Shown: positions 1 to 38,194 of the stretch, one piece after another | Position numbering within the stretch: position 1 is the stretch's first letter | Layout: the number at the start of each line of letters is the position of its first letter | Source: Clostridiales bacterium | Lineage (GTDB): Bacteria; Bacillota; Clostridia; Oscillospirales; Oscillospiraceae | Assembly (NCBI GenBank): GCA_022782265.1 | Contig: JALFOM010000084.1 | Span: 1,961-65,960 of the forward strand | Reading direction: 5' to 3' | DNA: 64,000 nt | Position numbers and translations under genes: made by a program | Notes under the pieces: generated by a model | Told to the model about the DNA's origin: nothing | The model's input: only the letters and a program-made list of their open reading frames with translations | The model's database searches: none

Positions 1-122
1 ATCAGCCCCGTGAGCTTAAAAAGCAGGCTCCAGCCGAAAAGGGTGAAGGAGCACAGGGCGCTGGTGGACACCACGATGTCTCCGGCCAGCACTGCGTTGA
101 GACATACGATAAAACTTTCCAT
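1..122 (-). CDS. N-terminal part of a small hydrophobic (membrane) protein, open at the left window edge
   Basis: ATG at 122-120 with GAGG 5 nt upstream. My translation is MESFIVCLNAVLAGDIVVSTSALCSFTLFGWSLLFKLTGL, which is hydrophobic. It is absent from the ORF track because it is short and open-ended. Confidence 0.35.
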   Translation of the reverse strand, partial: MESFIVCLNAVLAGDIVVSTSALCSFTLFGWSLLFKLTGL

Positions 123-2808: not shown

Positions 2809-2912
2809 GCACATAAAATTGGAAAATTGAAATATTTATCCGCCTTTATTTTCTCTGCCGCCGCACATAATGATAGTGCGGTGATTTCACGCGGGAGGGA
2901 GAAAATTTTGGC

Positions 2913-3836
2913 ATGAAAAAAACGATCATTACAGCGCTGATGTGCCTGGCGCTGGTCTCTGCCATGCCCACGGCGGCCTATGCCATGGAGCTTGTGGTAG
3001 GCGGGCAGCCGATGGGAATACAGCTCAATACCGACGGGGTAATGGTGGCAGGGCTGGCCTCCATAGAGACGGCAGAGGGCAAGAAGTCCCCCGCCGCCGA
3101 CGCAGGCTTTCGCCAGGGCGACATCATTATCAAAATCGGCGAGAGAAAAGTGAGCTGCGCGGCGGATTTTATTGACGCGGTGGCGGCGCTGAACGGGCAG
3201 AGCGCCCCGGTCACGGCCCTGAGAGACGGCAAAACGGTGGAGATGAGGGTGCAGCCGGTACTGTCCGGCGAGAACCAGTGGATGCTGGGCATGTGGCTTC
3301 GCGACGGCATATCGGGTATTGGCACTTTGACCTTTTGCGATCCGGACTCCGGGATATACGGCGCGCTGGGCCACAGTGTGAATGACGAGGACAGCGGCGT
3401 GATCCTGCCTCTGGGCGACGGCAGCATCAGCAGCGCCCAGATTGTGGGCGTCGTGCCCGGATCTCAGGGCGCGCCGGGTGAGCTGACCGGTGCCACCGAC
3501 ACCGGCAAGATCCTGGGCAGCGTGGAAAAGAACACGGAAAAGGGGATTTACGGTCACAGCTATGTGTCCCTGGGCGGCAAGGTGGTGGAGACCGGCAAGA
3601 TTCAAACCGGCAGCGCCTCGATTATTTCCACCGTCAGCGGCAGCGAGCCGAAGGAATACGCGGTGGAGATCAACCGGGTGTACAGTGAAAGCGGCTGTAC
3701 CCGGGTGATGCTGACCGTCACAGACCCTGAGCTCTGCGCCGCCACCGGCGGCATCGTACAGGGCATGAGCGGCAGCCCTATCCTCCAGAACGGCTGCCTG
3801 GTGGGTGCGGTGACCCATGTGTCAGTACCCACATGA
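2913..3836 (+). CDS. spoIVB: SpoIVB peptidase (S55), 5' portion of a gene split by an insertion; reads into the element and stops after 4 foreign codons
   Basis: Signal/TM N-terminus, PDZ-like GFRQGDIIIKIGERKV, catalytic His context GALGHSV and Ser context GMSGSPILQNG. The ORF ends ...GAVTHVSVPT* directly after the 17-bp junction repeat. The conserved tail is found at 13290-13388. Confidence 0.9.
   Translation: MKKTIITALMCLALVSAMPTAAYAMELVVGGQPMGIQLNTDGVMVAGLASIETAEGKKSPAADAGFRQGDIIIKIGERKVSCAADFIDAVAALNGQSAPVTALRDGKTVEMRVQPVLSGENQWMLGMWLRDGISGIGTLTFCDPDSGIYGALGHSVNDEDSGVILPLGDGSISSAQIVGVVPGSQGAPGELTGATDTGKILGSVEKNTEKGIYGHSYVSLGGKVVETGKIQTGSASIISTVSGSEPKEYAVEINRVYSESGCTRVMLTVTDPELCAATGGIVQGMSGSPILQNGCLVGAVTHVSVPT
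3806..3822 (+). repeat. left junction core (attL) TGCGGTGACCCATGTGT
   Basis: Identical 17-mer at 13289-13305. The flanking bases differ on both sides (g/a before, c/t after). Confidence 0.9.
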
Positions 3837-4006
3837 TACCCACCAGAAAGAAAGCGTTTCCTCACACAAAATACATAGTCACGGAAAGCGAGAATACGGA
3901 AAAAGCAACAAGAGCGCGGCGTCACGGCTGCGCTCTTGCTGCTTCATTTGTCTGATTGCATGATTATGACCGCAAAAGACATACAATAATTTTTTGGATT
4001 TAATAG

Positions 4007-4035
4007 TTGACAAAAGCAACGAATTTTAGTAATAT
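4007..4035 (+). promoter_or_regulatory. sigma-A type promoter of the two-gene cassette
   Basis: TTGACA (4007-4012), 17-nt spacer, TAATAT (4030-4035), 28 nt upstream of the ATG at 4064. Confidence 0.55.
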
Positions 4036-4063
4036 AGGCGCAGAAAAATATTGGAGGTTTTGC

Positions 4064-4687
4064 ATGAACCATTTCGATCTGAAATCTGAACTGATTACGC
4101 CCGCTGTTGCTCTGAAGCTTGTCCCTGCATTTGTTTCCGCTTATGAACTTGCCGCCTCTGCGGCTAACGAAATTGAGTTTCTCGGTGGAGAACTGCGGTA
4201 TCAGATTCTTCCTCATCTCCGTAACTGGGCGGTCGAGTTTGAGCTGGACAGGCGGGCACGCTTGGGCTTGATTCCGTTTTCCAGTAGCTTTGAGAGCAAC
4301 TCAAGGAACAATCACAGGCATCTTGAACTTCGGAAAGGCAATGTACTTCTTACGATAAGCCAGACGCATCACTGCATCGATCTTCCGCGTGATTGCGTGT
4401 TTCGTAACGAGCACTGCGAAAATGGGCAGTATTGCTTGGAAGGCTTCGAGGAAAAAGTTGACACCGCCAGCAAAAACATTTATGCTATCCTTACGCATGG
4501 TCAGGGCAAATCTGCTCCGGGCTTCATCCTCTGTGGCGTCCCTGCTCCGGATATGAAAAAGTGGTCCCAGGCGGTCAACCTTTATGATGTTGTTCGCAAT
4601 CTTGAGCTCGTAGACGATGCGCCTGTTACCGAAGAAATCCACCTGGGGTACAGAGAGTCCGTGAAAAAGAATATTACCAATGCTTGA
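4064..4687 (+). CDS. hypothetical protein, 207 aa, no family recognised
   Basis: ATG at 4064 preceded by GGAGG with 7-nt spacing (the track start at 4007 is a TTG inside the promoter). This is a 624-nt open frame in comparatively AT-rich DNA. It lies 16 nt upstream of the XRE-ImmA gene, so an operon is likely. Confidence 0.7.
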   Translation: MNHFDLKSELITPAVALKLVPAFVSAYELAASAANEIEFLGGELRYQILPHLRNWAVEFELDRRARLGLIPFSSSFESNSRNNHRHLELRKGNVLLTISQTHHCIDLPRDCVFRNEHCENGQYCLEGFEEKVDTASKNIYAILTHGQGKSAPGFILCGVPAPDMKKWSQAVNLYDVVRNLELVDDAPVTEEIHLGYRESVKKNITNA

Positions 4688-4703
4688 TGGGAGGCTTTAG
4701 ACA

Positions 4704-5876
4704 ATGTCTAGGCAATCCAAAATTGCTCAAAAAGAGCCTTTGGTGCCGGAAAGGATACGAGAAGCTCGGCTTGCAAGGGGCATGTCGGCAATAGATCTAG
4801 CTAGCGCAATTGGAGTATCCAGGCAAGCAATTTCAAAATATGAGCTTGGAAGTGCCGAGCCTAGTTTTGCAGTCCTTGAGGCTCTTTCTAATACCCTTAG
4901 AATGCCCATTTCTTTCTTTTCAAAACCACCTGAGGCCGGAGCAAACCGGGGAACGACTTTTTACCGCAGCTTAAAAACCAACGCGGCACGTGCAAAAGAC
5001 ATTATGGCGACCAAGAGTGAGTGGGCTTCAGAAATAGCTAGTTTTGTAGAGCGAGGAATAGTTTTTCCTGATGTGGATATCCCGAGCCTTCCCGAAGAAT
5101 TCAATAATGCAGAAGCATTTTCTGACGAGGAAATAGAAGATATTGCGGAGTATGTTCGACGCTGCTGGAAGTTAGGGAATGGCCCTATCCCTAATATTTC
5201 GAGGACACTTGAGGCCCACGGGGTTGTAATCTCCACCATAAAAACCGGATGCGAAGAAACTGACGCTTGTTCATGCTTCATAGATTCTCGCCCATTCATT
5301 TTCCTGGATACACAAAAGGAGTGCGCCGTACGAACAAGATTTAATCTCTCACATGAACTTGGGCACCTTATTTTGCATGGCGGGATCTCGCAGAGTGACA
5401 TTGCAGACAAAAAAGAGCAAGATCGAATTGAAAAAGAAGCAAACCATTTTGCTTCGTGTTTTTTGCTCCCAAGAGAATCCTTTCTGCGAGATATCCGCTC
5501 AACATCGCTGACTTCCTTCCTGCCGTTGAAGAAAAAATGGAAGGTTTCTATTCAAGCTATGGTATATAGGTGCAAGGAACTTGGCGTTTTTTCAGATAGC
5601 CAGATGATCTATATACAAAAACAAATATCTGCAAGGCGCTGGAGAAAAAACGAACCGTTTGATGATGAGTGGCCCTGTGAAGAACCAATCGTACTAAGGA
5701 CTGCGGTCAATATGCTTGTTGACCGAGGAGACTTTTCTAAAGAGGATTTTAGTTCAATCCTTAGGTTCCCTGCGTTAGATATCGAGGAGATTTGCTCTTT
5801 GCCAGAAGGATTTCTAAGCGAAAGGGAACAGGATATGCCAATAATCATTGATTTTGCCACAAAAAGGCAGATCTAA
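4704..5876 (+). CDS. XRE-family HTH fused to ImmA/IrrE (COG2856-type) zinc metallopeptidase
   Basis: 390 aa. N-terminal HTH: IREARLARGMSAIDLASAIGVSRQAISKYELG. HEXXH motif: SHELGHLILH. Downstream EKEANHFASCFLLP supplies the third-ligand region typical of the ImmA/IrrE family. A C-terminal extension of roughly 100 aa follows. Confidence 0.85.
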   Translation: MSRQSKIAQKEPLVPERIREARLARGMSAIDLASAIGVSRQAISKYELGSAEPSFAVLEALSNTLRMPISFFSKPPEAGANRGTTFYRSLKTNAARAKDIMATKSEWASEIASFVERGIVFPDVDIPSLPEEFNNAEAFSDEEIEDIAEYVRRCWKLGNGPIPNISRTLEAHGVVISTIKTGCEETDACSCFIDSRPFIFLDTQKECAVRTRFNLSHELGHLILHGGISQSDIADKKEQDRIEKEANHFASCFLLPRESFLRDIRSTSLTSFLPLKKKWKVSIQAMVYRCKELGVFSDSQMIYIQKQISARRWRKNEPFDDEWPCEEPIVLRTAVNMLVDRGDFSKEDFSSILRFPALDIEEICSLPEGFLSEREQDMPIIIDFATKRQI

Positions 5877-5905
5877 CCGAAACAATACAATATTGTTGTC
5901 CTTTA

Positions 5906-5937
5906 GGGAAGCATGTTTAAGAAGCATGCTTCCCTTT
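5906..5937 (+). terminator. rho-independent terminator closing the two-gene cassette
   Basis: gggaagcatg ... catgcttccc stem followed by tttt. Confidence 0.65.
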
Positions 5938-5985
5938 TCGCGTAGAAGCTATTCCAATTTAATCACAAGGAGGCGGACAGAACGC

Positions 5986-6336
5986 ATGAGAGCACTGGTT
6001 GCTCAAGAAGGGAGCTTTTCTTTTTACCGGGTTCCCCGGCAGCTTATCAAGGGGCGGGAGTATCGTCCGCTGTCGCCCGCTGGGAAGCTGCTGTTTGCCC
6101 TGCTTCTCGACCGCGTGAGCCTGTCCGTAAAAAACGGCTGGCGGGACGGGGAGGGGCGGACATATGTGTATTACGCCGTCGCGGAGATCTGCGAGGACTT
6201 CGGCTGCAGCCGCGTCACCGCCGGAAAGCTGCTTTCGGAGCTGGAGCGGATCGGCCTGATCGAGCGAAAAAAGCAGGGCCAGGGCAAGCCGGATCGGATT
6301 TGCGTCCTGCAATTTTGCGCCAAACCGGACTTCTAG
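5986..6336 (+). CDS. replication initiator A (RepA_N) N-terminal domain only, probable remnant
   Basis: ATG at 5986 after AAGGAGG. The sequence FYRVPRQLIKGREYRPLSPAGKLLFALLLDRVSLSVKNGWRDGEGRTYVYY...GLIERKKQGQGKPDRI matches my memory of the Firmicute RepA_N winged-helix domain. At 116 aa it lacks the usual C-terminal half. Confidence 0.7.
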   Translation: MRALVAQEGSFSFYRVPRQLIKGREYRPLSPAGKLLFALLLDRVSLSVKNGWRDGEGRTYVYYAVAEICEDFGCSRVTAGKLLSELERIGLIERKKQGQGKPDRICVLQFCAKPDF

Positions 6337-6365
6337 ACTTCCCAAAAGGAAACTTCTAGACTTCC
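6329..6365 (+). repeat. tandem iteron-like repeats ACTTCTAGACTTCC x2 (23-bp register)
   Basis: Copies at 6329-6342 and 6352-6365. The related 11-mer CCCGAAGTCTG occurs at 6371-6381 and 6516-6526, and an AT-rich stretch lies at 6390-6500. Confidence 0.45.
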
Positions 6366-6539
6366 GCTTTCCCGAAGTCTGGAGGTAAAAATCTTTTACA
6401 TCAAGAAACCAAAAACTTATGCCCTAATAAGACTGATAGAAAGAAACTGATAAAATTATACTGAGTGATCTATTCATCCATCTATCTATCATTACTACTA
6501 ATCTGCGCGTCAAAACCCGAAGTCTGAAAGGCGCAAATG

Positions 6540-6556
6540 TGTCTCACCGTGAGACA
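6540..6556. repeat. 17-bp palindrome TGTCTCAC-C-GTGAGACA (copy 1)
   Basis: Read directly. Followed by agttttctctttt. The flanks aaatg...(a)gtttt are shared with copy 3. Confidence 0.85.
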
Positions 6557-6598
6557 AGTTTTCTCTTTTCATGCGACAAAAGGAGAAAATACGCACCG

Positions 6599-6664
6599 TG
6601 TTAAGCAAGTATGGCATTTGTTAAACACAAACGCCCTTGTTAGGGGATGACCCCTAAAACCCCG
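6599..6664 (+). repeat. left arm of a ~65-nt imperfect inverted repeat
   Basis: Contains AAGCAAGTATGGCATTTG (6603-6620), the exact reverse complement of 10652-10669. Similarity extends through caaacgcc and a ttagggg...cctaa hairpin. Confidence 0.75.
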
Positions 6665-6717
6665 CGCAGCGGAACAAACAGACGCCTTTTGGAGAAACAC
6701 CGAACCAAGATGTGCCG

Positions 6718-6746
6718 TTGACAATTAGCGTAATTATGCATATAAT
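6718..6746 (+). promoter_or_regulatory. consensus sigma-A promoter of the Phd/RelE operon
   Basis: TTGACA (6718-6723), 17-nt spacer, TATAAT (6741-6746). AAGGAGG RBS before the ATG at 6771. Confidence 0.65.
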
Positions 6747-6770
6747 AATGCTAAGCAAGGAGGTGGCGAG

Positions 6771-7058
6771 ATGCCAAATATTCGTCCTGTTTCCGATCTG
6801 AGAAATCATTTCGCTGAGATTACCAAAGACGCTCAGCTCAGCGGTGAGCCGATCTTCCTGACCAAGAACGGCGTCGGCTCCATCGTTGTCATGAGCATGG
6901 AGAGCTACGAGCAGAACCGCTATGACAGCATGGTCTACGACAAGCTGCGCGAGGCGGAGCTGCAGGCTGCCAGCACGACGGAGCGTTTGAGCCATGCCGA
7001 TGTTATGGCGAAAGCGCGTGCGTTTCTGAGCGGTGCGGAGGAGCAAAAGCGTGCATAA
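6771..7058 (+). CDS. type II antitoxin, Phd/YefM family
   Basis: 95 aa. The N-terminus MPNIRPVSDLRNHFAEITKDAQLSGEPIFLTKNGVGSIVVMSMESYE is the Phd/YefM fold signature. It overlaps the downstream toxin gene. Confidence 0.85.
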   Translation: MPNIRPVSDLRNHFAEITKDAQLSGEPIFLTKNGVGSIVVMSMESYEQNRYDSMVYDKLREAELQAASTTERLSHADVMAKARAFLSGAEEQKRA

Positions 7059-7359
7059 GATCGTTTATTTGCCGCTGGCGGAGAGCGACTTGATGGACGC
7101 GCTGGGCTATATTGCCTACACGCTGGACGCGCCAAAAGCCGCCCGCGATCTGCTGGCCGAGTTTGACGAGACGGTACAGCGCATCGCGGAGTTCCCCTAC
7201 GCCCACGAGCTTTACCGGACAGACCGCCCGATGAAAGACGAGATCCGCAAGGTGCCGGTCAAGAACTATGTGCTCTATTATGCCGTCTTTCAAGACCGCG
7301 TAGAGATTCGCCGCTTTCTCTACGGCAAGAGAGACAGAAGCAGAATCGATGAAGAATAA
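7051..7359 (+). CDS. type II toxin, RelE/ParE family
   Basis: GTG at 7051 overlaps the antitoxin stop by 8 nt. About 102 aa with a DEIRKVPVKNYVLYYAVFQDRVEIRRFLYGKRD ParE/RelE-like C-terminus. Confidence 0.8.
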   Translation: MHKIVYLPLAESDLMDALGYIAYTLDAPKAARDLLAEFDETVQRIAEFPYAHELYRTDRPMKDEIRKVPVKNYVLYYAVFQDRVEIRRFLYGKRDRSRIDEE

Positions 7360-7528
7360 TGCAACACAGAAGATGAAGCTGCCCGCCGTCCCCGTCCCGG
7401 ACATGAGCAATCTCACGAAGGAGCAGTTGAAAGCGGAAATCGAGAAGGGCTTTGCTGACACTGCCGCCGGACGAGTAACGCCCGCTGCCGAGGTGTTTGC
7501 CGAGCTGCGGGGGAAAGACACGCAGTAA
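7349..7528 (+). CDS. small antitoxin-like ORF (59 aa)
   Basis: ATG at 7349 overlaps the RelE stop. The C-terminus LKAEIEKGFADTAAGRVTPAAEVFAELR resembles the tail of RelB/ParD-type antitoxin-like proteins (from memory). Below the ORF-track size cut-off. Confidence 0.4.
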   Translation: MKNNATQKMKLPAVPVPDMSNLTKEQLKAEIEKGFADTAAGRVTPAAEVFAELRGKDTQ

Positions 7529-7538
7529 ACCCATAATC

Positions 7539-7555
7539 CGTTTCACCGTGAAACG
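7539..7555. repeat. 17-bp palindrome CGTTTCAC-C-GTGAAACG
   Basis: Read directly. The flank aatccgtttcac is shared with the copy at 10579-10603. Confidence 0.8.
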
Positions 7556-7583
7556 AATTTACAAACGAATAGCTATCAACCGG

Positions 7584-7610
7584 AAACTTGTCTCACCGTG
7601 AGACAAGTTT
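7584..7610. repeat. 27-bp palindrome AAACTTGTCTCAC-C-GTGAGACAAGTTT (copy 2), terminator-like and possible oriT inverted repeat
   Basis: 13-bp perfect arms followed by ccttttttc. It sits immediately upstream of the mobC RBS. Confidence 0.8.
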
Positions 7611-7630
7611 CCTTTTTTCATGGAGGTGTT

Positions 7631-7939
7631 ATGAGAGAACGCAATCATTTTATCGGCCTTTGGCTAAATAATGAGGAATACGCCCATCTGCGAGAGCAAT
7701 GCGAGATCACGGGTTTACCAACCAGCGTACTGATCCGCAATGCCCTCGCTGGGGTACAGCTCCGGCAAAGACCACCCGGCGAATACGCGGGCCTGCTGCG
7801 GGCTCTATCGGCCATCGGCAACAACGTCAACCAAATCGCGCACTGGGCCAACGCCAAAAAGAGCATCCAAGAGGCGGAGATCCGGCAGGCGGTTCTGCTG
7901 GCAAACAAGGCGTGGGAGTTGGTAAAGGAGACGTTGTAA
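7631..7939 (+). CDS. mobC: plasmid mobilisation relaxosome protein MobC (orphan, no relaxase follows)
   Basis: ATG at 7631 after GGAGG. The sequence LNNEEYAHLREQCEITGLPTSVLIRNALAG...LSAIGNNVNQIAHWANA matches the MobC RHH plus IGNNLNQIAR motif. Confidence 0.85.
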   Translation: MRERNHFIGLWLNNEEYAHLREQCEITGLPTSVLIRNALAGVQLRQRPPGEYAGLLRALSAIGNNVNQIAHWANAKKSIQEAEIRQAVLLANKAWELVKETL

Positions 7940-7942
7940 ATG

Positions 7943-7959
7943 TGTCTCACCGTGAGACA
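7943..7959. repeat. 17-bp palindrome TGTCTCAC-C-GTGAGACA (copy 3)
   Basis: Starts 4 nt after the mobC stop. 7938-7965 is a direct repeat of 6535-6562 with one mismatch. Confidence 0.85.
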
Positions 7960-8114
7960 GGTTTTGACCGAGCTTCTGATGTCACTCAAAGCTCAAACTC
8001 TTCTTATTTGCGCTGTCGTGATATAATAAAGAAAAAACTTTTCCTGTTTTTGTGACACTTTGCTCAAAAAATGGATTTATATAAGTGAGGGCCCTTAAAC
8101 AAAGGAGACGAGGT

Positions 8115-8687
8115 ATGAACGACAGAGATATAGTCAATTTATACTGGCAGCGTTCAGAGCAGGCCATAGCGGAAACCGAGCGGAAATACGGGAGTTACTG
8201 CCACATTATCGCATATAACATCCTCGAAAACAGCGAAGATTCCGAGGAGTGCGTCAATGATACCTGGATGAGCGCATGGAACGCAATGCCGGACAAGCGC
8301 CCGGACCGGCTCAGCCCCTTCCTTGCCCGGATCACACGCAACTTCGCTCTGACAAAGATCGTCCGTCGCACGGCGAAGAAACGGGGCGGCGGTGAAGCAG
8401 AGCTTGCGCTGGAGGAGCTGGACGAGTGTCTTTCCTCCGGCTACGATCTGGAAAAGGAAATCGAAGATCGGGAGCTGAGTCGCGCCATAGACGAATTTAT
8501 AGGGCAGCTCGGTGAAGAAGAACAGCTTGTATTTGTCAGCCGGTATTGGTTCGTGGCGACCGAGCGGGAGATCGCGGAAAAGCTGGGCCTGAGCCGCAGT
8601 GGCGTCGCCGCCATGCTGAAAAGGACAAGAGGCAAGTTGAAGACATACCTGTTGATGGAGGGCTTATGTACAATTCGGAACGAATGA
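8115..8687 (+). CDS. sigma-70 family (ECF-like) RNA polymerase sigma factor, element copy
   Basis: ATG at 8115 after AAAGGAG. The region-2-like segment is IVNLYWQRSEQAIAETERKYGSYCHIIAYNILENSEDSEECVNDTWMSAW and region 4 is REIAEKLGLSRSGVAAMLKRTRGKL. By eye it is more than half identical to the chromosomal copy at 23649-24206. Confidence 0.85.
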   Translation: MNDRDIVNLYWQRSEQAIAETERKYGSYCHIIAYNILENSEDSEECVNDTWMSAWNAMPDKRPDRLSPFLARITRNFALTKIVRRTAKKRGGGEAELALEELDECLSSGYDLEKEIEDRELSRAIDEFIGQLGEEEQLVFVSRYWFVATEREIAEKLGLSRSGVAAMLKRTRGKLKTYLLMEGLCTIRNE

Positions 8688-9736
8688 TGAAAGCCGTTGG
8701 AGACATTTCCGATGATAAGATCGAGAAAACCGGCCGCGCGCTGGGCTATCAAAAAGAGAGACACAGCATGTCTCGCGCCCCCGTTCGGATGGGGAGATGG
8801 CTGTCCATTGCTGCGGTGGTTGCGCTGATCCTCGCGCTGGGTGTGACGGCCTATGCAATCTATACGCACTGGTCGCGAGGCATGGAGCAACGACTTCCCG
8901 CCACAGAGGAAGAAAAAGAACTGGCAGAGCAGAGCGGCCTGTCCGACACTTCCCATACTGTCAGCGCCACAGCCAACGGCGTGACGATCTCTGTGGAGCA
9001 GACGATCATCGACGGAGATTCCGCCGAGATTGCCCTGCGGATCGAGGGTTGGCAGCTTGACCGGGAACAGGAACTTGACGCCACCGTTTGGGGCTGGATG
9101 CCTACCTTCAACGGAGAAGGAGCGCCTGCGATGGGCGGCAGTTTCGTGGAAGACCGCGACGCAAATGACCGTGTTTTCATTATTGCGGCTGACGGCTCGA
9201 TGGAATTCGATATCTGGGCCAGAGCAGGAGACAAGCTAGGTACACTTTCCGGAAAAGAAATCCGTATTTGCATTGAAAGTTTAGGCGTTGGAGGTCTTAA
9301 AAGCGAGTATCAGCCGTTGGTGGAAGGCCCCTGGGAACTCGTTTGGACACCCAGTAGCAACAGCGAACTGCTGACCGTACAGCCTGATGCAGACCTCGGT
9401 GATACCGGGATCAAGTTGGTTTCCGCGGAGGTTGGCCCGATTTCTGCGAAGGTGGCGCTACAGCTTCCCGAACTCTGGAAGGGCTACGAAACCTTGGAGC
9501 ACCACGATCTCCAACTCGTGGGCGTGCGGCTGACCGACGGGACGGTGCTGACCAACATCTTTGGGCCGCCCACGCAGGAGGGCTACGCGGATATCGACAA
9601 TTTGATCCTTGAGCTGGACTACTCTTCGCATCAGATCCTCCAGCCGGAGCAGGTGGAGGCACTGATTTTTGCCAGCAACTTCCCTTGGGCGAGAACATTG
9701 ACAGACATCGATCTGATCATTATTCCAATCAAATAG
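8666..9736 (+). CDS. single-pass membrane protein co-translated with the sigma factor (putative anti-sigma factor)
   Basis: ATG at 8666 within GGAGGGCTTATG, the same overlap context as 24200. N-terminal cytoplasmic segment, TM helix WLSIAAVVALILALGVTAYAI, then a ~270-aa extracytoplasmic domain. Confidence 0.6.
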   Translation: MYNSERMMKAVGDISDDKIEKTGRALGYQKERHSMSRAPVRMGRWLSIAAVVALILALGVTAYAIYTHWSRGMEQRLPATEEEKELAEQSGLSDTSHTVSATANGVTISVEQTIIDGDSAEIALRIEGWQLDREQELDATVWGWMPTFNGEGAPAMGGSFVEDRDANDRVFIIAADGSMEFDIWARAGDKLGTLSGKEIRICIESLGVGGLKSEYQPLVEGPWELVWTPSSNSELLTVQPDADLGDTGIKLVSAEVGPISAKVALQLPELWKGYETLEHHDLQLVGVRLTDGTVLTNIFGPPTQEGYADIDNLILELDYSSHQILQPEQVEALIFASNFPWARTLTDIDLIIIPIK

Positions 9737-9760
9737 TAAGTATTGGAACACATAGAGATC

Positions 9761-9949
9761 ATGATCATAGAACAAGAACGAAAGTCATTATGGCTCCCAT
9801 GTCCAAAGTGTGGAGCCAGGACAAAGATCAAAATCTATGAGGACACCGTACTTCTGAATTTCCCCTTATACTGTACCAAGTGCAAGGAAGAAACCAAACT
9901 CGGCGTGATAAAATTCAAGATCGTAGTTAGCGACGAGCCAGACGCTTAA
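9761..9949 (+). CDS. cysteine-rich KTR domain (zinc-ribbon) small protein
   Basis: CPKCG...NFPLYCTKCK...EPDA pattern, as I remember for the Cys-rich KTR family on Firmicute mobile elements. The start is uncertain (TTG 9743 or ATG 9761). Confidence 0.7.
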   Translation: MIIEQERKSLWLPCPKCGARTKIKIYEDTVLLNFPLYCTKCKEETKLGVIKFKIVVSDEPDA

Positions 9950-9954
9950 AGCGC

Positions 9955-9990
9955 AGAGCCTGCTACTCCGTGAGTGGAGAAGCAGGCTCT
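9955..9990 (+). terminator. hairpin after the KTR gene
   Basis: agagcctgct ... agcaggctct (10-bp arms) followed by ttctgtcgtt. The T tract is weak. Confidence 0.45.
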
Positions 9991-10208
9991 TTCTGTCGTT
10001 ATTGGGCATTCAGCACAGGAGTTTTCCCTTCCCCCCGCAGGGCTGTTGGAGAAGCGTGTTTGAAATACCGCTGATTTGGCCTTATCAGTGAGATTCGGCA
10101 CCGTTGCTATAGCTTCGGTTTCGTTTTGAGATCAGGCACCGTCTATGTTCAAAAGCGAAAAGATAGTATTGCTTATTGACCTACACATTCAGAAAGCGGA
10201 GGACAGAT

Positions 10209-10580
10209 ATGTACAGCTTTCATTCTGAAAACAACATGTCCGGCGTGACGCCGGAGGAGATTGCGCGGCTGCTGCGCAGCATCGGAGCATCCGGCAGATT
10301 GGTCGGCTTCTATTACACTGTCTATATCGTGTACACGATCCTGCAAAAGCCGGATGAGTATTTCTGGATCACCAAATGCGCCTACCCGGAAACGGCCCGG
10401 TATTTCAAGGTCAGTCCGTCCTCCGTGGAGCACACGATCCGCACGCTGATCGCTTCGGTGTGGAATCGCCGCAATCATTCCGACATCAACCGCGTGGCCG
10501 GGATCGAGCTAGAGAAGCCGCCCACTAACAGCGAGTTTATCGATATACTGGTCGCCTATCTCCGCTACGGTGTGGATTAA
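10209..10580 (+). CDS. stand-alone Spo0A C-terminal (DNA-binding effector) domain protein, no receiver domain
   Basis: ATG at 10209 after GCGGAGG with 6-nt spacing. The sequence ITKCAYPETARYFKVSPSSVEHTIRTLIASVWNRRN...EKPPTNSEFIDILVAYLR parallels the Spo0A segment ...[32 protein letters not shown]...KPTNSEFIA that I recall. Confidence 0.8.
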   Translation: MYSFHSENNMSGVTPEEIARLLRSIGASGRLVGFYYTVYIVYTILQKPDEYFWITKCAYPETARYFKVSPSSVEHTIRTLIASVWNRRNHSDINRVAGIELEKPPTNSEFIDILVAYLRYGVD

Positions 10581-10603
10581 TCCGTTTCACCATGAAACGG
10601 ATT
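10579..10603 (+). terminator. hairpin AATCCGTTTCA-cca-TGAAACGGATT after the Spo0A_C gene
   Basis: 11-bp arms and a 3-nt loop, followed by ttcgc. Member of the GTTTCAC/GTGAAAC palindrome family. Confidence 0.55.
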
Positions 10604-10610
10604 TTCGCAT

Positions 10611-10675
10611 CGGGTGTTAGGTGGCGCCCCTAAAAGCGGCGTTTGAACTATCAAATGCCATACTTGCTTATAACA
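10611..10675 (-). repeat. right arm of the ~65-nt imperfect inverted repeat
   Basis: CAAATGCCATACTTGCTT (10652-10669) is the exact reverse complement of 6603-6620. Extended similarity was aligned by hand. Confidence 0.75.
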
Positions 10676-10732
10676 TGCGGCTTCCGTCGAGAAACGGATA
10701 AAAGGATTAAATAATGTAGTAATCATTCCGTA

Positions 10733-10960
10733 CTATCTCGAACGAAAAGAGGCCACTTTTCCCGATACTTGCGGTAAAATGGTGTTAAACCAAATAGAGC
10801 TGGCAGATACAATGGTGCCGAATAGAATCAAATGTCCGGCTATACGCTCGGGAAGAAATCTGCCGCAAACGACTTCTTTTTGTCGGGACTTGATTTCTTT
10901 TGCGAATTTTCGTTTTTTCAGCGCCTGATTTTGTTTTAGATATATGGAGAGAAGTCCCAA
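10733..10960 (-). CDS. possible small membrane protein (75 aa)
   Basis: TTG start preceded by GAGGAAGG with about 5-nt spacing. A basic N-terminus is followed by one hydrophobic helix, IAGHLILFGTIVSASSIWFNTIL. No homology recognised. Confidence 0.3.
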   Translation of the reverse strand: MGLLSIYLKQNQALKKRKFAKEIKSRQKEVVCGRFLPERIAGHLILFGTIVSASSIWFNTILPQVSGKVASFRSR

Positions 10961-11276
10961 AGGACACCTTCCTCGAAAACCGAATAGGGCAGGCAGATAC
11001 GTTCTGCTTGTGGGGAGCCGGGCAGCGGGTGCGCCAGGATGCCGATCAACCGAGAGGTGAAGATATCAGGCTGAGCGAGCAACACCGCGCTGTATGCAGC
11101 CGATGGCAAGGCTGAGGGCCACGATCCGCGAGCAGAGATAATGATACCTACGTTGATGGCACGTCACAGAGTCAAACGTCCCGCCATGAGCATGGAGGGA
11201 GGCACGAAACGATCCTACGGAGCGGCCCGCCCCGCCGCCGTCTGACCCTCGCCTTTGAAAAACCGTGAATCTTACG

Positions 11277-11313
11277 ATCCGCACTACACAAGAGTGCGGA
11301 TTTTGTCTTTTTT
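11277..11313 (+). terminator. strong rho-independent terminator in a gene-poor stretch
   Basis: atccgcact-acacaag-agtgcggat followed by tttgtctttttt. No convincing upstream CDS. Confidence 0.7.
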
Positions 11314-11318
11314 AGTCG

Positions 11319-11345
11319 AAATGTGTTTCACGGTGAAACACATTT
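11319..11345. repeat. 27-bp perfect palindrome AAATGTGTTTCAC-G-GTGAAACACATTT
   Basis: 13-bp arms. The half sites GTTTCAC/GTGAAAC equal parS half sites, but one extra central base is present. Confidence 0.85.
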
Positions 11346-11402
11346 TTCAAGCCCAAATTTGGCATACTAAACCATATCCACACACGAAAGGAGCGGGAGC
11401 TT

Positions 11403-11582
11403 ATCATCGTTTCCACGATTAAAAACGAAAACGCCGTGGTGCAGATCCACGACGATTATATTGAGGATATCGACGAGAACGCGGCGCGGGTGAAGGAGAT
11501 ATTGACCAAAGCCCGCAAGCGCCGCAAGGCGGCCGCGAAGCCCGCCGCCGCACAACAAAAGTCTTACGCGCCGCAGCTATAA
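11403..11582 (+). CDS. small basic-tailed ORF directly upstream of the recombinase, lacking a canonical start codon (RDF candidate or decayed gene)
   Basis: AAAGGAG at 11387-11393 lies 9 nt before an in-frame ATC at 11403. The first canonical start is GTG at 11436. Translation: IIVSTIKNENAVVQIHDDYIEDIDENAARVKEILTKARKRRKAAAKPAAAQQKSYAPQL*. A short hairpin plus T-run follows at 11570-11597. Confidence 0.35.
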   Translation: MIVSTIKNENAVVQIHDDYIEDIDENAARVKEILTKARKRRKAAAKPAAAQQKSYAPQL

Positions 11583-11620
11583 TCTGCGGCCTTTTTCTAT
11601 AAATTGCCACGCCTGAAAAT

Positions 11621-11649
11621 TTGACAGGCTATGGCCGATTTGAGATAAT
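11621..11649 (+). promoter_or_regulatory. sigma-A-like promoter of the recombinase gene
   Basis: TTGACA (11621-11626), 17-nt spacer, GATAAT (11644-11649). AAAGGAGG RBS, then ATG at 11671. Confidence 0.5.
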
Positions 11650-11670
11650 ATCGACAGAAAGGAGGCCCCC

Positions 11671-13212
11671 ATGGAGCAATATCTTGAATATCTCCGTAAA
11701 TCTCGCTTTGACCGTGATTATCTGGATTTGAGTGTGGAGGAAACGCTGAAACGGCACCAGGAGATTCTGGACAGACTGGCGAGAGACAGAGGATTCTATA
11801 TTGCGAAGGTGTATCGGGAGGTCGTGTCCGGCGAGTCCATCGCCGCCCGGCCCGAGGTACAGAAGATGCTGGAAGAAGTCTCTTCCGGGATCTATACCGG
11901 GGTGCTCGTTGTCGATGTGGAGCGTCTGGCCCGCGGCAACAGCGCGGATCAGGCATACATCAGCCAGATCTTTCAGTTCTCCGACACCAAGATCATCACC
12001 CCCGCCAAGACCTACGACCCGACGGACGAATTCGACCAGGAGTATTTCGAGTTCGGCCTGTTCATGAGCCGGAGAGAGTACAAGACCATCAACCGACGCC
12101 TTGTCAGAGGCCGTCAGAGCTCCGCCAGTGAAGGAAAATACGTCGGCAGCATCGCGCCCTATGGCTACGACCGGGTGAAGCTGCAGGGTGAGAAGGGCTA
12201 TACGCTCGAACCAAATCCGGCAGAGGCGGAGGCTGTGCGGCGGATGTTCGAGCTGTACGTCCGGCGGCAGGGTACGAAAATGATCGCCAATGAGCTGAAC
12301 GACCGCAAAATCCCCACGCGCCACGGCGGGAAGTGGGATGCCTCGACGGTGGGCAACATCCTCATAAACCCCGTCTATCTGGGCAAGATCAAGCGCGGCT
12401 ACGTCAAAGAGACCAAGCGCCTGGACGAGCGGGGCAATGTGGTGTCCAGCTACAGGCATTGCAAGGACGTGGAGGACTACGACCTGTACGAGGGCCGCCA
12501 CCCCGCGCTGATCGACGACGCGCTCTTTGAAAAAGCGCAGAAGATACGCAAGGAAAACTACGTCGGCCCGAAGGTAAAAAAGCAGTACGAGCTTGTCAAT
12601 CCCTTCGCGGGCGTGATGGTCTGCGCGGAGTGCGGAAAGCCTATCGGCCGCAAGGCCTCCTCGAAGAACCACCCCAACCCGCCCCGCGTGGCCTGTACCA
12701 ATCCTCACCACTGTCACAACCGCTCCGCGAGCTTTGCGCTGGTGGAAACGGAAATCCTGAGCGCGCTGCGGAGCTGGCTGGACGGCTACAGGATCAAGCT
12801 GGACACCGTGGGCTTTGCGGAGGATATAGCGGACTGTCGGCGGCAGCTGGAACGGATCGCAGCGGAGCGGGAGAAGCTGAAAGCGCAGCTTGACCGGGCC
12901 TACACACTGGTGGAGCAGGGCGTTTACAGTTTGGAGGTCTTCGGGGAACGGTGCGACAAGCTGACGCGAGAGCTGAATGATCTGCAGGAGCAGCAGGACG
13001 CCGCAGAGCAGAGTTTGGCGCAGTATGAGGCCGACGAGAGCAGCCAGCAGGAGATCATTCCGCAGACGGAGACGCTCCTGGCAAGCTACGACGAGTTGAC
13101 CGTACAGGAGCGCAACGAGCTCTTGAAGACCATCCTTTACAAGATTGAATACTACCGGGGAGAGGATGGGATCGTGTCCATTGACCTGTATCCCAGGCTC
13201 CCTAAAGCATAA
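11671..13212 (+). CDS. large serine recombinase (resolvase/invertase N-domain, recombinase domain, zinc ribbon, coiled coil)
   Basis: 513 aa. The catalytic-Ser context YLRKSRFD resembles the YLRRSRQD I recall for SPbeta SprA. Recombinase domain: GYTLEPNPAEAEAVRRMFELYV...WDASTVGNILINPVYLGK. Zinc ribbon: CAECGKPIG...CTNPHHCHN. A C-terminal coiled coil is present. Confidence 0.95.
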   Translation: MEQYLEYLRKSRFDRDYLDLSVEETLKRHQEILDRLARDRGFYIAKVYREVVSGESIAARPEVQKMLEEVSSGIYTGVLVVDVERLARGNSADQAYISQIFQFSDTKIITPAKTYDPTDEFDQEYFEFGLFMSRREYKTINRRLVRGRQSSASEGKYVGSIAPYGYDRVKLQGEKGYTLEPNPAEAEAVRRMFELYVRRQGTKMIANELNDRKIPTRHGGKWDASTVGNILINPVYLGKIKRGYVKETKRLDERGNVVSSYRHCKDVEDYDLYEGRHPALIDDALFEKAQKIRKENYVGPKVKKQYELVNPFAGVMVCAECGKPIGRKASSKNHPNPPRVACTNPHHCHNRSASFALVETEILSALRSWLDGYRIKLDTVGFAEDIADCRRQLERIAAEREKLKAQLDRAYTLVEQGVYSLEVFGERCDKLTRELNDLQEQQDAAEQSLAQYEADESSQQEIIPQTETLLASYDELTVQERNELLKTILYKIEYYRGEDGIVSIDLYPRLPKA

Positions 13213-13288
13213 GTTTGTATCCCCCAGTCACGGGCCGCTGTGCGTCCCGCGACAGCCCCCTTTAGGCAAGGGGGCCCTGTAGCCATCA

Positions 13289-13305
13289 TGCGGTGACCCA
13301 TGTGT
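13289..13305 (+). repeat. right junction core (attR) TGCGGTGACCCATGTGT
   Basis: Identical to 3806-3822. Confidence 0.9.
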
Positions 13306-13388
13306 TTGTCAACGATCCCACCAGGGGCTACGGCATCAGCATCCAGGACATGCTGGAGACAGCGGAGATTGAGGACAAGGCGGCGTAA
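13290..13388 (+). pseudogene. spoIVB: 3' fragment of spoIVB (last 32 codons plus stop), separated from its 5' part by the element
   Basis: My translation is AVTHVFVNDPTRGYGISIQDMLETAEIEDKAA*. The first five codons duplicate 3807-3821. There is no start codon or RBS of its own. Confidence 0.85.
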
Positions 13389-36746: not shown

Positions 36747-36916
36747 ATTTGCTTTCTCCGTTCTGTTTCTGGGCAATATTTCATGTCATTATATCACAGC
36801 GTTTTATGCTTGTACAGAGAAATACGGCAGGGAAAATACCCTGTTTGGCCGTATTTTTTGGAATATTTCGTTTTTGCCCGCATAAGTTTAAGCAGTCTGA
36901 CAACGGAGGAGAGAGC

Positions 36917-38194
36917 ATGAGATTATTACGTCTGGGCAGCATGGGCCCTTCGGTACAGCTATTGCAGCTTGCCCTGAACCGGGCGGGCTTTGGTCCGCTG
37001 GAGCAGGACGGCGTTTTCGGCACAGCCACGCAGAATGCCCTTGCCCGCTTTCAGCAGGCCCAGGGTCTGACGCCGGACGGGATCGCGGGCAGCAGCACAC
37101 ACAGGGCGCTTCTGCCCTGGTACACCGGCTTTACGGTACATCGGGTACAGCGGGGTGACAGTCTTTATTCCGTCGCTGAACGGTACGGCAGCAGCGTGGA
37201 GGCCATACAGCTTGCCAATCCGGAGCTGAACCCGGCAAATCTCCTTATCGGCACGCAGCTGGTGGTTCCTCTTCCTTTCCCGGTGGTCCCTACGGACATC
37301 GCTTACTCCTCCCAGCTGGTGGCCTATTGCGTGAGAGGGCTTGCGGCCCGCTACCCCTTTATTGTCACCGGAGAAATCGGCAAAAGCGTCATGGGAAGGC
37401 CTCTGTGGGTTATGATTCTGGGCAGCGGCGAAAACCGGGTGATGTATAACGCCTCCCATCACGCCAACGAGTGGATCACCACACCGGTGCTGCTGAAATT
37501 TGCCGAGCAGCTGGCCTCCGCTTTTGCCTCCGGCGGCAGCGTCTTCGGCCAGAGCGCGGCTGAGCTGATGGACTATGCCTCAATATACTTCGTTCCTGCT
37601 GTGAACCCGGACGGCATCGACCTGGTGACCGGGGAGCTGACGCAGGGGGAGTATTATGACCGCGCGGCGGCCATTGCCGCAAATTATCCGCAGTTTCCCT
37701 TCCCTTCCGGCTGGAAGGCCAATATCCGGGGCGTTGATCTGAATCTCCAGTACCCGGCAGGCTGGGAGCAGGCCAGGGAGAACAAATATGCCCAGGGCAT
37801 ACGCTCTCCCGCTCCGGCGGATTTTGTGGGCTCTGCGCCTCTGACGGCCCCGGAGAGCCGGGCCATGTACGACTTTACTCTGTCCGTGGAGCCGGAGCTG
37901 ATTTTGGCTTATCACACCCAGGGTGAGGTGATCTTCTGGCAGTTTCTGGACTATGAGCCGGAGGGCTCCCGGAGCATCGCAGAGCTGTTTTCCCATGTGT
38001 CGGGCTACCGCGTGGAGAGCACGCCCTATGCCTCCGGCTTTGCGGGCTATAAGGACTGGTTTATTCAGGATTTCAACCGGCCGGGCTACACCATTGAGGC
38101 GGGGCTCGGGCTAAACCCGCTGCCTGTCTCGGATTTTGCCGGCATTTATGAAAAAAATCTGGGTATCCTTACCCTGGGCGCGCTGGTGACCTGA
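36917..38194 (+). CDS. M14-family peptidoglycan peptidase (gamma-D-glutamyl-meso-DAP peptidase-like) with PG-binding and LysM domains
   Basis: ATG at 36917 after GGAGGAG. PG_binding_1-like LQLALNRAGFGPLEQDGVFG and LysM HRVQRGDSLYSVAERYG are followed by HHANEW, the M14 HxxE zinc motif. Confidence 0.8.
   Translation: MRLLRLGSMGPSVQLLQLALNRAGFGPLEQDGVFGTATQNALARFQQAQGLTPDGIAGSSTHRALLPWYTGFTVHRVQRGDSLYSVAERYGSSVEAIQLANPELNPANLLIGTQLVVPLPFPVVPTDIAYSSQLVAYCVRGLAARYPFIVTGEIGKSVMGRPLWVMILGSGENRVMYNASHHANEWITTPVLLKFAEQLASAFASGGSVFGQSAAELMDYASIYFVPAVNPDGIDLVTGELTQGEYYDRAAAIAANYPQFPFPSGWKANIRGVDLNLQYPAGWEQARENKYAQGIRSPAPADFVGSAPLTAPESRAMYDFTLSVEPELILAYHTQGEVIFWQFLDYEPEGSRSIAELFSHVSGYRVESTPYASGFAGYKDWFIQDFNRPGYTIEAGLGLNPLPVSDFAGIYEKNLGILTLGALVT

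Follow-up and report, generated by a model that had tools for sequence, protein, structure and literature searches.

The 64,000-nucleotide window described here (positions 1,961 to 65,960 of contig JALFOM010000084.1, Clostridiales assembly GCA_022782265.1) carries spoIVB, the gene of a sporulation protease of the S55 family, in two pieces. They are separated by an intervening element of about 9.5 kb, the right-hand edge of which is occupied by a gene for a large serine recombinase (LSR) preceded by a small open reading frame (ORF). The features of the locus are collected in Table 1. The 5' part of spoIVB encodes a signal peptide, a PDZ domain (Pfam matches to PDZ_2 and PDZ_6) and most of the S55 protease domain, including the GMSGSP motif, and is 97% identical to P0001, an intact homologue. 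It runs into the element as a truncated ORF (2913–3836, 307 residues), which terminates ...GAVTHVSVPT*. On the other side of the element, positions 13290–13388 translate as AVTHVFVNDPTRGYGISIQDMLETAEIEDKAA*. When 2913–3822 is joined to 13306–13388, the result is 993 nt long and reads as 330 codons plus a stop. The initial annotation had described spoIVB as split and exactly rebuildable in frame, and its coordinates and sequences are correct.

The joined protein fits two family profiles better than the truncated one does. The match to Pfam Peptidase_S55 rises from 200.1 bits (profile positions 2–195 of 210) to 231 bits (2–210 of 210). Against the NCBIfam SpoIVB equivalog TIGR02860, which has a cutoff of 305.25 bits, the truncated ORF scores 278.1 bits and its alignment ends at profile position 381 of 402, whereas the joined protein scores 314.7 bits and reaches position 401. 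The GMSGSP motif and the C-terminal THVFVNDPxxGYG motif are invariant among 31 homologues and identical in Bacillus subtilis SpoIVB (PDB id: 9lnf). The tail encoded by the 3' part aligns with the tails of B. subtilis SpoIVB and of the intact homologues, so that the rebuilt C-terminus matches both the family profile and natural intact alleles end to end, as had been anticipated.

The insertion costs the protease its last 27 residues. In the AlphaFold2 model (mean pLDDT of 77.5), a cut after V303 removes the loop FVNDPT, the last β-strand (residues 310–315) and the C-terminal helix (residues 316–322). The invariant residues F304, P308, G311, I316, M319 and L320 are lost with them. Judging by this model, the truncation should inactivate the protease. 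Separate expression of the 3' tail was considered and ruled out: it lacks a start codon in frame, and the nearby ATG at 13288 lies in a different frame (ATG CGG TGA). No second S55 paralogue is present within the window. As an observation, the split gene is far beyond chance.

The empty allele and the attachment sites

A search with the joined protein retrieved full-length proteins of 330 residues at 97%, 94%, 88% and lower identities. The closest, P0001, is a natural uninterrupted SpoIVB found at four loci (L001–L004), in which the gene order is that of the window: Mur ligase, RuvX, MscS, spoIVB, an opposite-strand gene for a 188-residue protein, a response regulator and a kinase. The window without 3823–13305 aligns with these contigs as a single block that runs through the junction at 92.6% nucleotide identity. 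The sequence at this site in L001, GGTGGGCGCGGTGACCCATGTGTTTGTCAACGAC, is the predicted attB. The uninterrupted allele that the initial annotation proposed to look for in related genomes is thus present in natural populations, in the same synteny.

The junctions carry a direct repeat of 17 bp, TGCGGTGACCCATGTGT, which was noticed from the outset. The identity is exact, the two copies listed in Table 1 are the only ones on either strand of the whole window, and the repeat cannot be extended by one base on either side. The functional core is shorter. In a second sample of the window species (L174, 97.6% nucleotide identity) attL is the same but its host side reads GCAGTGAC instead of GCGGTGAC, so the functional shared core is at most 13 bp long (GTGACCCATGTGT) and part of the 17-bp identity in the window is incidental. 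The core shared with a more distant relative, L005, is TGACGCATGTGT. Joining the two ends of the element reconstructs an attP with inverted arms, ATCATG..CATGAT. LSR integration placed the element in the T-H-V codons, close to the 3' end of spoIVB.

A low-coverage contig of the window species (L173 1000–1855, 97% nucleotide identity) carries a spoIVB that diverges into unrelated sequence at the catalytic-serine codons; at the point of divergence the translation ..GIVQGM is followed by GGIDNMDNT... Either spoIVB has received another insertion here, or the contig is an assembly chimera.

The recombinase and its relatives in Oscillospirales

The LSR is a full-length protein that lies just inside the right junction and reads outward, as first described. 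Its Pfam matches are Resolvase (51.1 bits) and Recombinase (87.4 bits); Zn_ribbon_recom scores 22.6 bits, under the cutoff of 25.3. The YLRKSR motif is invariant in 14 LSR relatives, and the match to a PHROG integrase family is 340 bits. The ratio of nonsynonymous to synonymous divergence (omega) of the LSR is 0.02–0.16 in all clades. The nearest phage homologues, such as that of PhiS63, are 37–41% identical. In IMG/VR, one of the 80 retrieved LSR relatives reaches 57% identity. The rest are phage LSRs at 44% or less, which have neither the small ORF nor a spoIVB fragment alongside.

Relatives at about 60% identity number in the thousands. The commonest of them, P0165 from Lawsonibacter, is found in 370 blocks of the collection. 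It lies at the edge of a larger element; TVTHVLVNDPTRGYG..., which is a spoIVB tail, comes next, and the host spo0A after that. When species-representative genomes were scanned with an alignment of LSRs, 80 loci were returned, mostly from Oscillospirales metagenome-assembled genomes (MAGs) plus isolates, among them the cultured Lawsonibacter sp. LCP25S3_E2 and Agathobaculum ammoniilyticum Sanger_34. A full-length LSR is present at 74 of these loci. In 53, it is followed by the spoIVB 3' tail within about 100 nt; in 15, by an opposite-strand 5' part ending ...GAVTHV; two run off the contig, and four are of other kinds, including an attP-like palindrome (L054). A spoIVB fragment therefore adjoins the LSR in 68 of the 72 informative loci, and all the fragments are broken at the T-H-V codons (ACN CAY GTN). 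The 3' fragments keep the conserved motif and are open to the stop in 53 of 53 loci. The 5' fragments adjoining the LSR align as single unbroken stretches up to the break.

The element is thus one of a large LSR family for which a conserved coding stretch of spoIVB serves as attB throughout Oscillospirales. The suggestion that spoIVB serves as a host gene for such an element is borne out, although the window is not a singular case but one member of a family dedicated to this gene.

Junctions of the attP type, in which the right end, the core and the left end follow each other, occur at L010 (11540–11600) and L054 (3555–3620), which come from a Logan metagenome run and a MAG contig. They have inverted arms, e.g. 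GTAGGTATCA...TGATACCTAC, and the arms of L010 are a perfect 10 bp. Excised circular or tandem forms of family members are therefore present in natural samples.

Relatives at 63–65% SpoIVB identity have proteins of 306–307 residues ending ...THVSVST* or ...THVSVTT*. One of them is found on JGI contigs of 67 kb and 134 kb (L005 and L006) in the same synteny as the window. Its element is 6.6 kb long and encodes RepA_N, Phd/ParE, a sigma factor, Cys_rich_KTR and the LSR, after which comes a spoIVB tail of 32 codons.

In a Faecousia sp. MAG (L020 5616–5750) the tail is near-identical to that of the window (the K variant of P0001), so the host of the window is probably close to Faecousia. The interrupting LSR of this MAG belongs to a different clade (62% identity), which indicates that different family members target one and the same host lineage. 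In L035 (11540–13230) and L072 (1712–5255), two spoIVB tail fragments stand in tandem, as do two att-like half-sites; this suggests successive insertions, or remnants piled up, at one attB. In three further loci (L087 10001–11537, L089 2513–3990 and L092 10001–11394), an apparently full-length spoIVB on the opposite strand has its 3' end about 100 nt away from a truncated N-terminal LSR fragment (76–81% identity).

A conserved recombination module with a small ORF

The ~400 nt upstream of the LSR gene have the same layout across the family, whatever the cargo. The small ORF is found immediately 5' of the LSR in about 55 loci. Its products form a family of about 47–68 residues with the motif M(I/V)AxExK....TVRIHD(E/D)..........IVSxSYKRR, and the window protein fits the ..V(R/Q)IHD(D/E)..IVSxSYKRR.. 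pattern. The family comprises 165 clusters among 1.84 billion representative proteins. It corresponds to no Pfam or PHROG family, and its homologues are all unnamed. AlphaFold2 predicts a β-hairpin followed by a long helix, a structure too small for a meaningful fold search. The ATG start has been lost in several lineages: the clade of the window (L014–L018, L005) has ATC or ATT instead, and L075 and L076 have ATA. These ATG-less ORFs keep the ribosome-binding site (RBS) and the frame, and sister lineages have ATG at that position. The loss could reflect deliberately low translation or early decay.

The LSR and the small ORF have promoters of two different kinds. Upstream of the LSR, 28 of 47 dereplicated lineages are within one mismatch of the sigmaA-type pattern TTGACA-16..18-TATAAT, compared to 0.03 expected from shuffles. 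The region upstream of the small ORF was scored in 42 dereplicated lineages, again with shuffle controls, for the forespore sigmaF/G pattern GHATR-17/18-CAHWHTA, a consensus that reportedly goes back to Helmann and Moran. The pattern is perfect in 7 of the 42 lineages (shuffle mean of 0.11) and within one mismatch in 26 (shuffle mean of 2.2), at a constant position. Examples are GCATA-17-CATACTA (L024, L049, L056), GAATA-17-CATAATA (L029) and GCATA-18-CATAATA (L052).

This enrichment is restricted to the 17/18-nt spacing and to the coding strand: other spacings and the reverse complement give 0–1 perfect and 1–6 near matches. None of the sigmaE, sigmaK and sigmaA patterns is enriched upstream of the small ORF, and sigmaE has no lineage of the 42 within two mismatches. 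The spacers between the -35 and -10 boxes are unalignable across lineages. In the -10 boxes, T6-A7 is present without a conserved T8, which sets them apart from mother-cell promoters, where T8 is typical. The forespore and mother-cell consensus sequences of Clostridioides difficile reportedly show a close resemblance to their B. subtilis counterparts (PMC3789822).

A near-palindromic conserved motif lies ~10–25 nt 5' of the LSR -35 box (11597–11609 in the window). Its sequence is TCCATAATTTGGA in most clades, with CTATAAATTGCCA at this place in the window, and it may be an operator or an activator site for the LSR gene.

Horizontal spread and vertical inheritance

The LSRs of the window and L005 are 97% identical, whereas the SpoIVB proteins of their hosts are only 63% identical. 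Synonymous divergence (dS) between the two loci is ~0.3 for the LSR and ~0.9 for spoIVB, with an LSR omega of 0.04–0.08. The same holds more widely: in the clade of the window and two other clades, dS of the LSR is far below that of spoIVB, at an LSR omega of 0.02–0.13. The elements are thus horizontally mobile, and selection on the split gene is unreadable in these three clades. The element of the window is an active, recently spreading one with mosaic cargo, and not an ancient resident.

A lineage of the Candidatus Limiplasma type (L046, L049, L059, L061, L081) presents a different picture. Here, the small ORF and the LSR follow directly after the essential operon frr-uppS-cdsA-dxr-rseP, and the module stands between rseP and the spoIVB tail in conserved synteny (L046 4857–11640, L049 1223–7030, L059 545–6320). 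L056, of the same type, shares the upstream genes and the module and has no tail after the LSR. The dS of the LSR (0.31–1.98) tracks that of the adjacent dxr, rseP, cdsA and uppS (0.32–1.47), and the LSR omega is 0.07–0.16. It follows that the module has passed vertically through several speciations while purifying selection was maintained.

The detached tail of 20 codons, FVNDPTMGYGLFIEWMLAQE, is identical at the protein level in five Limiplasma-type species, and all six variable nucleotides are at third codon positions. A dead fragment does not behave in this way; the pattern is that of protein-level purifying selection on a split gene that is in use. Neither the spoIVB 5' part nor a partner att half-site is found within 10 kb on either side of the Limiplasma-type loci. 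The segment that separates the two parts must therefore contain housekeeping genes, or else the rearrangement is an inversion. An intact Limiplasma-type attB has no match in metagenomes.

Contents of the element

The element has a G+C content of 51.8%, compared to 59.1% and 56.3% in its flanks. In addition to the recombination module, it encodes a set of regulatory, plasmid-type and toxin–antitoxin proteins (Table 1). Domain searches detect no relaxase in it, despite the presence of the NikA/MobC-like, RepA_N and Phd/ParE genes. PHROGs matches are limited to integrase, transcriptional-regulator and unknown-function families, and no virion or packaging family is among them. A prophage or prophage remnant was considered and rejected: phage structural genes are missing from the element, identity to the best phage LSR is 41%, and the IMG/VR relatives at 57% identity or above amount to the single one noted earlier. 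A known plasmid was likewise rejected, with no near match among 72,556 plasmid records. The element is small, integrative and of non-phage type, and its movement between species is recent.

Table 1. Coordinates of spoIVB, the intervening element and its genes and signals in the window
Feature	Position	Strand	Remarks
-10-like element CATAATG upstream of spoIVB	2866–2872	+	18 spoIVB upstream regions compared
spoIVB 5' part	2913–3822	+	Codons 1–303 and first base of codon 304
attL copy of the 17-bp repeat TGCGGTGACCCATGTGT	3806–3822	.	Crossover within the right-hand 12–13 bp
Intervening element	3823–13288	.	9,466 bp; boundaries set by the L001 empty site
Element-encoded end of truncated ORF (..SVPT, stop)	3823–3836	+	Related elements have SVST* or SVTT* there
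HTH_3 and Peptidase_M78 (ImmA/IrrE-like) regulator	4704–5876	+	Cargo absent from the L005 relative
RepA_N replication-initiator-like protein	5998–6336	+	
Perfect sigma70-type promoter ahead of Phd/ParE pair	6718–6746		
Phd/YefM antitoxin and ParE toxin pair	6771–7359	+	Antitoxin 6771–7058; toxin 7033–7359
NikA/MobC-like relaxosome accessory protein	7598–7939	+	
Extracytoplasmic function (ECF)-type sigma factor and DUF4179 anti-sigma-like protein	8085–9736	+	Sigma factor 8085–8687; anti-sigma-like protein to 9736
Cys_rich_KTR small protein	9743–9949	+	
Spo0A_C-only protein, without receiver domain	10176–10580	+	85.6 bits; DNA-binding domain of the sporulation master regulator
Two terminator-like hairpins	11276–11347	+	11276–11302; 11323–11341 and T-run; insulate small ORF from upstream transcription; homologous hairpin in related loci
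Forespore-type (sigmaF/G-like) promoter of small ORF	11340–11369	+	-10 CATACTA (11363–11369) perfect; -35 ACATT (11340–11344); 18-nt spacing
Small ORF, 59 residues	11403–11582	+	RBS GAAAGGAG 9 nt before ATC start; alternative GTG start at 11436
Intrinsic terminator between small ORF and LSR	11570–11590	+	GCCGCAG..CTGCGGC and T-run; conserved across family
sigmaA-type LSR promoter	11621–11649	+	TTGACA-17-GATAAT, extended TG
Large serine recombinase, 513 residues	11671–13212	+	Reads toward right junction; YLRKSR catalytic-serine motif at residues 7–12
attR copy of the 17-bp repeat TGCGGTGACCCATGTGT	13289–13305	.	Element-side arm CCATCATGCGGTGAC conserved among related elements
spoIVB 3' part	13306–13388	+	Last two bases of codon 304, codons 305–330, stop; FVNDPTRGYGISIQDMLETAEIEDKAA*

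The Spo0A_C-only protein lies near the ECF sigma and anti-sigma-like pair and is missing from the L005 relative. It could interfere with the entry into sporulation or trigger it. A similar hairpin occurs three times in the element (6540–6556, 7582–7612 and 11323–11341), with the core GTCTCACCGTGAGAC / GTTTCACGGTGAAAC and a T-run after each copy, and in other clades (e.g. L014 and L062) this hairpin stands ahead of the small-ORF promoter. These hairpins may be shared terminators or a protein-binding motif. Outside the element, 20 flanking ORFs were scanned. The sole other sporulation-flavoured gene among them is an ORF of 481 codons (36749–38194) with weak matches to the N-terminal peptidoglycan-binding region of SleB and to a SafA-type LysM domain, and nothing there is decisive.

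A proposed forespore switch and its alternatives

spoIVB is a forespore gene, transcribed by sigmaF/sigmaG in B. subtilis and by sigmaG (CD1213) or sigmaF (CD0783) in C. difficile. The described hosts of intervening elements (sigK, spsM, spoVFB, spoVR, gerE, yabG, cotJC and spoIIID) are all mother-cell genes, so the logic of skin and SPbeta cannot be transferred to spoIVB as it stands. By analogy with skin, the conserved module might be a developmental switch that excises the element in the forespore and rebuilds spoIVB there, a proposal on which we find belief and doubt evenly balanced. The LSR would be made constitutively from its sigmaA promoter, and the small protein, acting as the directionality factor, would be made in the forespore during sporulation. 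Together they would recombine attL with attR, upon which the element would leave as a circle and spoIVB would be rebuilt in the compartment in which it is normally expressed. Because the forespore does not divide, the circle would be trapped in the spore. At germination, with the factor gone, the sigmaA-driven LSR would put attP back into attB, and an occasional failure of this step would give rise to cured lineages with an intact spoIVB. The wider claim, that endospore formers of the Oscillospirales have a programmed and reversible germ-line rearrangement run by a sigmaF/G-dependent small factor and a constitutive LSR, is put forward more tentatively, as a possibility on which doubt somewhat prevails; the Limiplasma-type lineage would then excise or invert a large chromosomal segment.

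A number of observations weigh against the forespore switch. In the window clade, the promoter of the small ORF has a weak -35 box with two mismatches, and the ORF starts with ATC or ATT where other clades have ATG, so in this clade the switch could be decaying or weak. Its position, its promoter and analogy make the small protein a candidate recombination directionality factor, and it has no homology to known directionality factors. Such a factor is not a general necessity, as the LSRs TnpX and TndX excise without one. On the host side, relatives have CATACTG, CATATTA or CATAGTA at the position of the -10-like element upstream of spoIVB (shared form CATAnTG/A), and none of the sigmaG, F, E, K and A consensus sequences is significantly enriched in 14 dereplicated spoIVB upstream regions, which leaves the compartment of spoIVB expression in Oscillospirales hosts to be taken from model organisms only. 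The attP of the window clade, i.e. the circle junction, has no match in JGI metagenomes or IMG/VR. Flavonifractor and Oscillibacter are described as non-spore-forming. Many other cultured Oscillospiraceae are so described as well, which would fit simple inactivation. Finally, excision in the germ line carries a risk of losing the element that excision in the mother cell avoids.

Several of these points would fit an ordinary mobile element that has knocked out spoIVB, leaving its carriers asporogenous or able to sporulate only after rare curing. The recent horizontal spread, the vegetative promoter of the LSR and the coexistence of empty and occupied alleles in closely related populations speak for such plain inactivation too, as do the degenerate small-ORF signals of the window clade, its unmatched attP and the reports of non-spore-forming Oscillospiraceae. 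It is nevertheless on the unlikely side. A strand- and spacing-specific forespore promoter is kept across lineages that are otherwise unalignable, and hosts that never activate sigmaF/G would have no reason to keep it. In the lineage with an ancestral split, purifying selection acts on the protein sequence of the detached tail; across the family, all 53 tails are intact in motif and open to the stop, and the 5' fragments are unbroken to the break. Another idea is that the insertion is neutral, with the 307-residue SpoIVB still working or a second S55 paralogue elsewhere covering for it. The GMSGSP serine motif, the GALGH histidine motif and the PDZ domain are all in the 5' part, and C. difficile does have two SpoIVB paralogues. 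Yet the truncation takes away the most conserved motif of the family (FVNDPxxGYG) along with the last β-strand and the C-terminal helix, the truncated ORF falls below the TIGR02860 cutoff, no paralogue is found in the 64 kb, and selection on the detached tails shows that the tail is still needed. We regard neutrality as very improbable.

The remaining alternative keeps the developmental switch and moves it to the other compartment: spoIVB would be expressed in, or needed from, the mother cell, and excision would take place only there, while the forespore keeps the element. Every characterised sporulation intervening element behaves in this way, the intermembrane space in which SpoIVB acts can topologically be reached from either compartment, and the host spoIVB promoter matched no sigma consensus significantly. 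Against this stand the small-ORF promoters, which fit the forespore consensus, have the T6-A7 form of the -10 box and show no sigmaK enrichment and no sigmaE match, and the sigmaF/G dependence of spoIVB in both model organisms. Excision confined to the mother cell is improbable on these grounds, if less so than neutrality, and the forespore switch remains the reading that we carry into the comparisons below.

Comparison with known systems

The closest counterpart in design is C. difficile's skin element, in which the LSR CD1231 is sigmaA-driven in all cells, and a 72-residue orphan protein, CD1234, is the directionality factor; under the control of sigmaE/SpoIIID, it limits excision to the mother cell (PMC5025042). 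Similar to the window, C. difficile skin has an LSR at its edge, a split sporulation gene that is rebuilt in frame, a sigmaA promoter of the LSR and a small orphan protein of ~60–70 residues with a sporulation-type promoter, although in the window the directionality role of this protein is assigned by analogy. The two differ in the host gene (sigK, a mother-cell gene, versus spoIVB) and in the promoter of the factor (sigmaE/SpoIIID versus sigmaF/G-type), and CD1234 has no detectable similarity to the product of the small ORF.

B. subtilis skin (SpoIVCA) and SPbeta (SprA/SprB), as well as vfbin, vrin, gin and yin, share with the window element a sporulation gene interrupted by an LSR-bearing element, short core repeats and att sites with inverted-repeat arms, and in those known systems the gene is reconstituted by excision. 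SPbeta, gin and yin also have an adjacent or nearby small gene for a directionality factor with a sporulation promoter, comparable to the small ORF, and the phage PhiS63 is reported to be a functional sigK intervening element. Unlike the window element, this group has mother-cell hosts, its excision is confined to the discarded mother-cell genome, and its members are mostly prophages or remnants, whereas phage structural genes are absent here. The lack of a mother-cell host and of mother-cell excision sets the spoIVB element apart from skin-type members despite the shared architecture. The likeness to skin and SPbeta drawn in the initial annotation accordingly stands for the position of the LSR, at the edge and next to the 3' fragment, and fails for the host, which is a forespore gene, and for the nature of the element, which is not a prophage remnant.

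Restoration of a gene in a surviving cell, followed by re-integration, has parallels in active lysogeny (Listeria phi10403S in comK and SpyCI in mutL), which the spoIVB element would resemble only if the forespore switch is right. Those systems rely on tyrosine recombinases or phage regulation and respond to the growth phase or the phagosome; re-integration here is hypothetical. The Anabaena fdxN element and its recombinase XisF are akin to the proposed switch in the timed, LSR-mediated removal from a gene that only a differentiated cell requires. The heterocyst, however, is terminally differentiated and in this resembles the mother cell and not the forespore, and there is no close sequence relationship: the window LSR scores a sub-threshold 74.9 bits against the XisF model, which has a cutoff of 375. 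Tn4451 (TnpX) and Tn5397 (TndX) are, like the window element, small and non-phage, with a terminal LSR, genes of the mobilisation or plasmid type and spread between species. In contrast to them, the element here has neither a relaxase nor resistance cargo and is targeted to a single codon stretch of one sporulation gene. We know of no small ORF with a forespore promoter in Tn4451 or Tn5397.

Implications

The initial annotation was not aware of any description of spoIVB as a host gene for an intervening element, and the searchable full-text literature, which does not extend to subscription-only papers, contains no such report. The host gene and a large, previously unrecognised family of elements are apparently new. 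If the promoter assignment holds, the logic is new as well: a reversible rearrangement of the germ line. Every known case relies on the dead-end mother cell, so that the germ line never loses the element, and the spoIVB family would break this rule. It would then represent the first developmental genome rearrangement in the forespore line instead of the disposable mother cell. The testable question that it raises is whether a bacterial germ-line genome can be rearranged and then restored.

The family also offers material for genome engineering, namely dozens of natural LSR/att pairs, with an attB of ~40 bp in conserved coding sequence, and a candidate new class of small directionality factors.

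SpoIVB triggers the sigmaK checkpoint in Bacillus, so an element that gates it could time or diversify sporulation in gut communities. If the forespore switch is real, mobile DNA would gate the checkpoint between the forespore and the mother cell in a new way. Annotations of many gut Oscillospiraceae genomes will list spoIVB as a pseudogene or as truncated, which affects predictions of which of these bacteria form spores and how they are transmitted.

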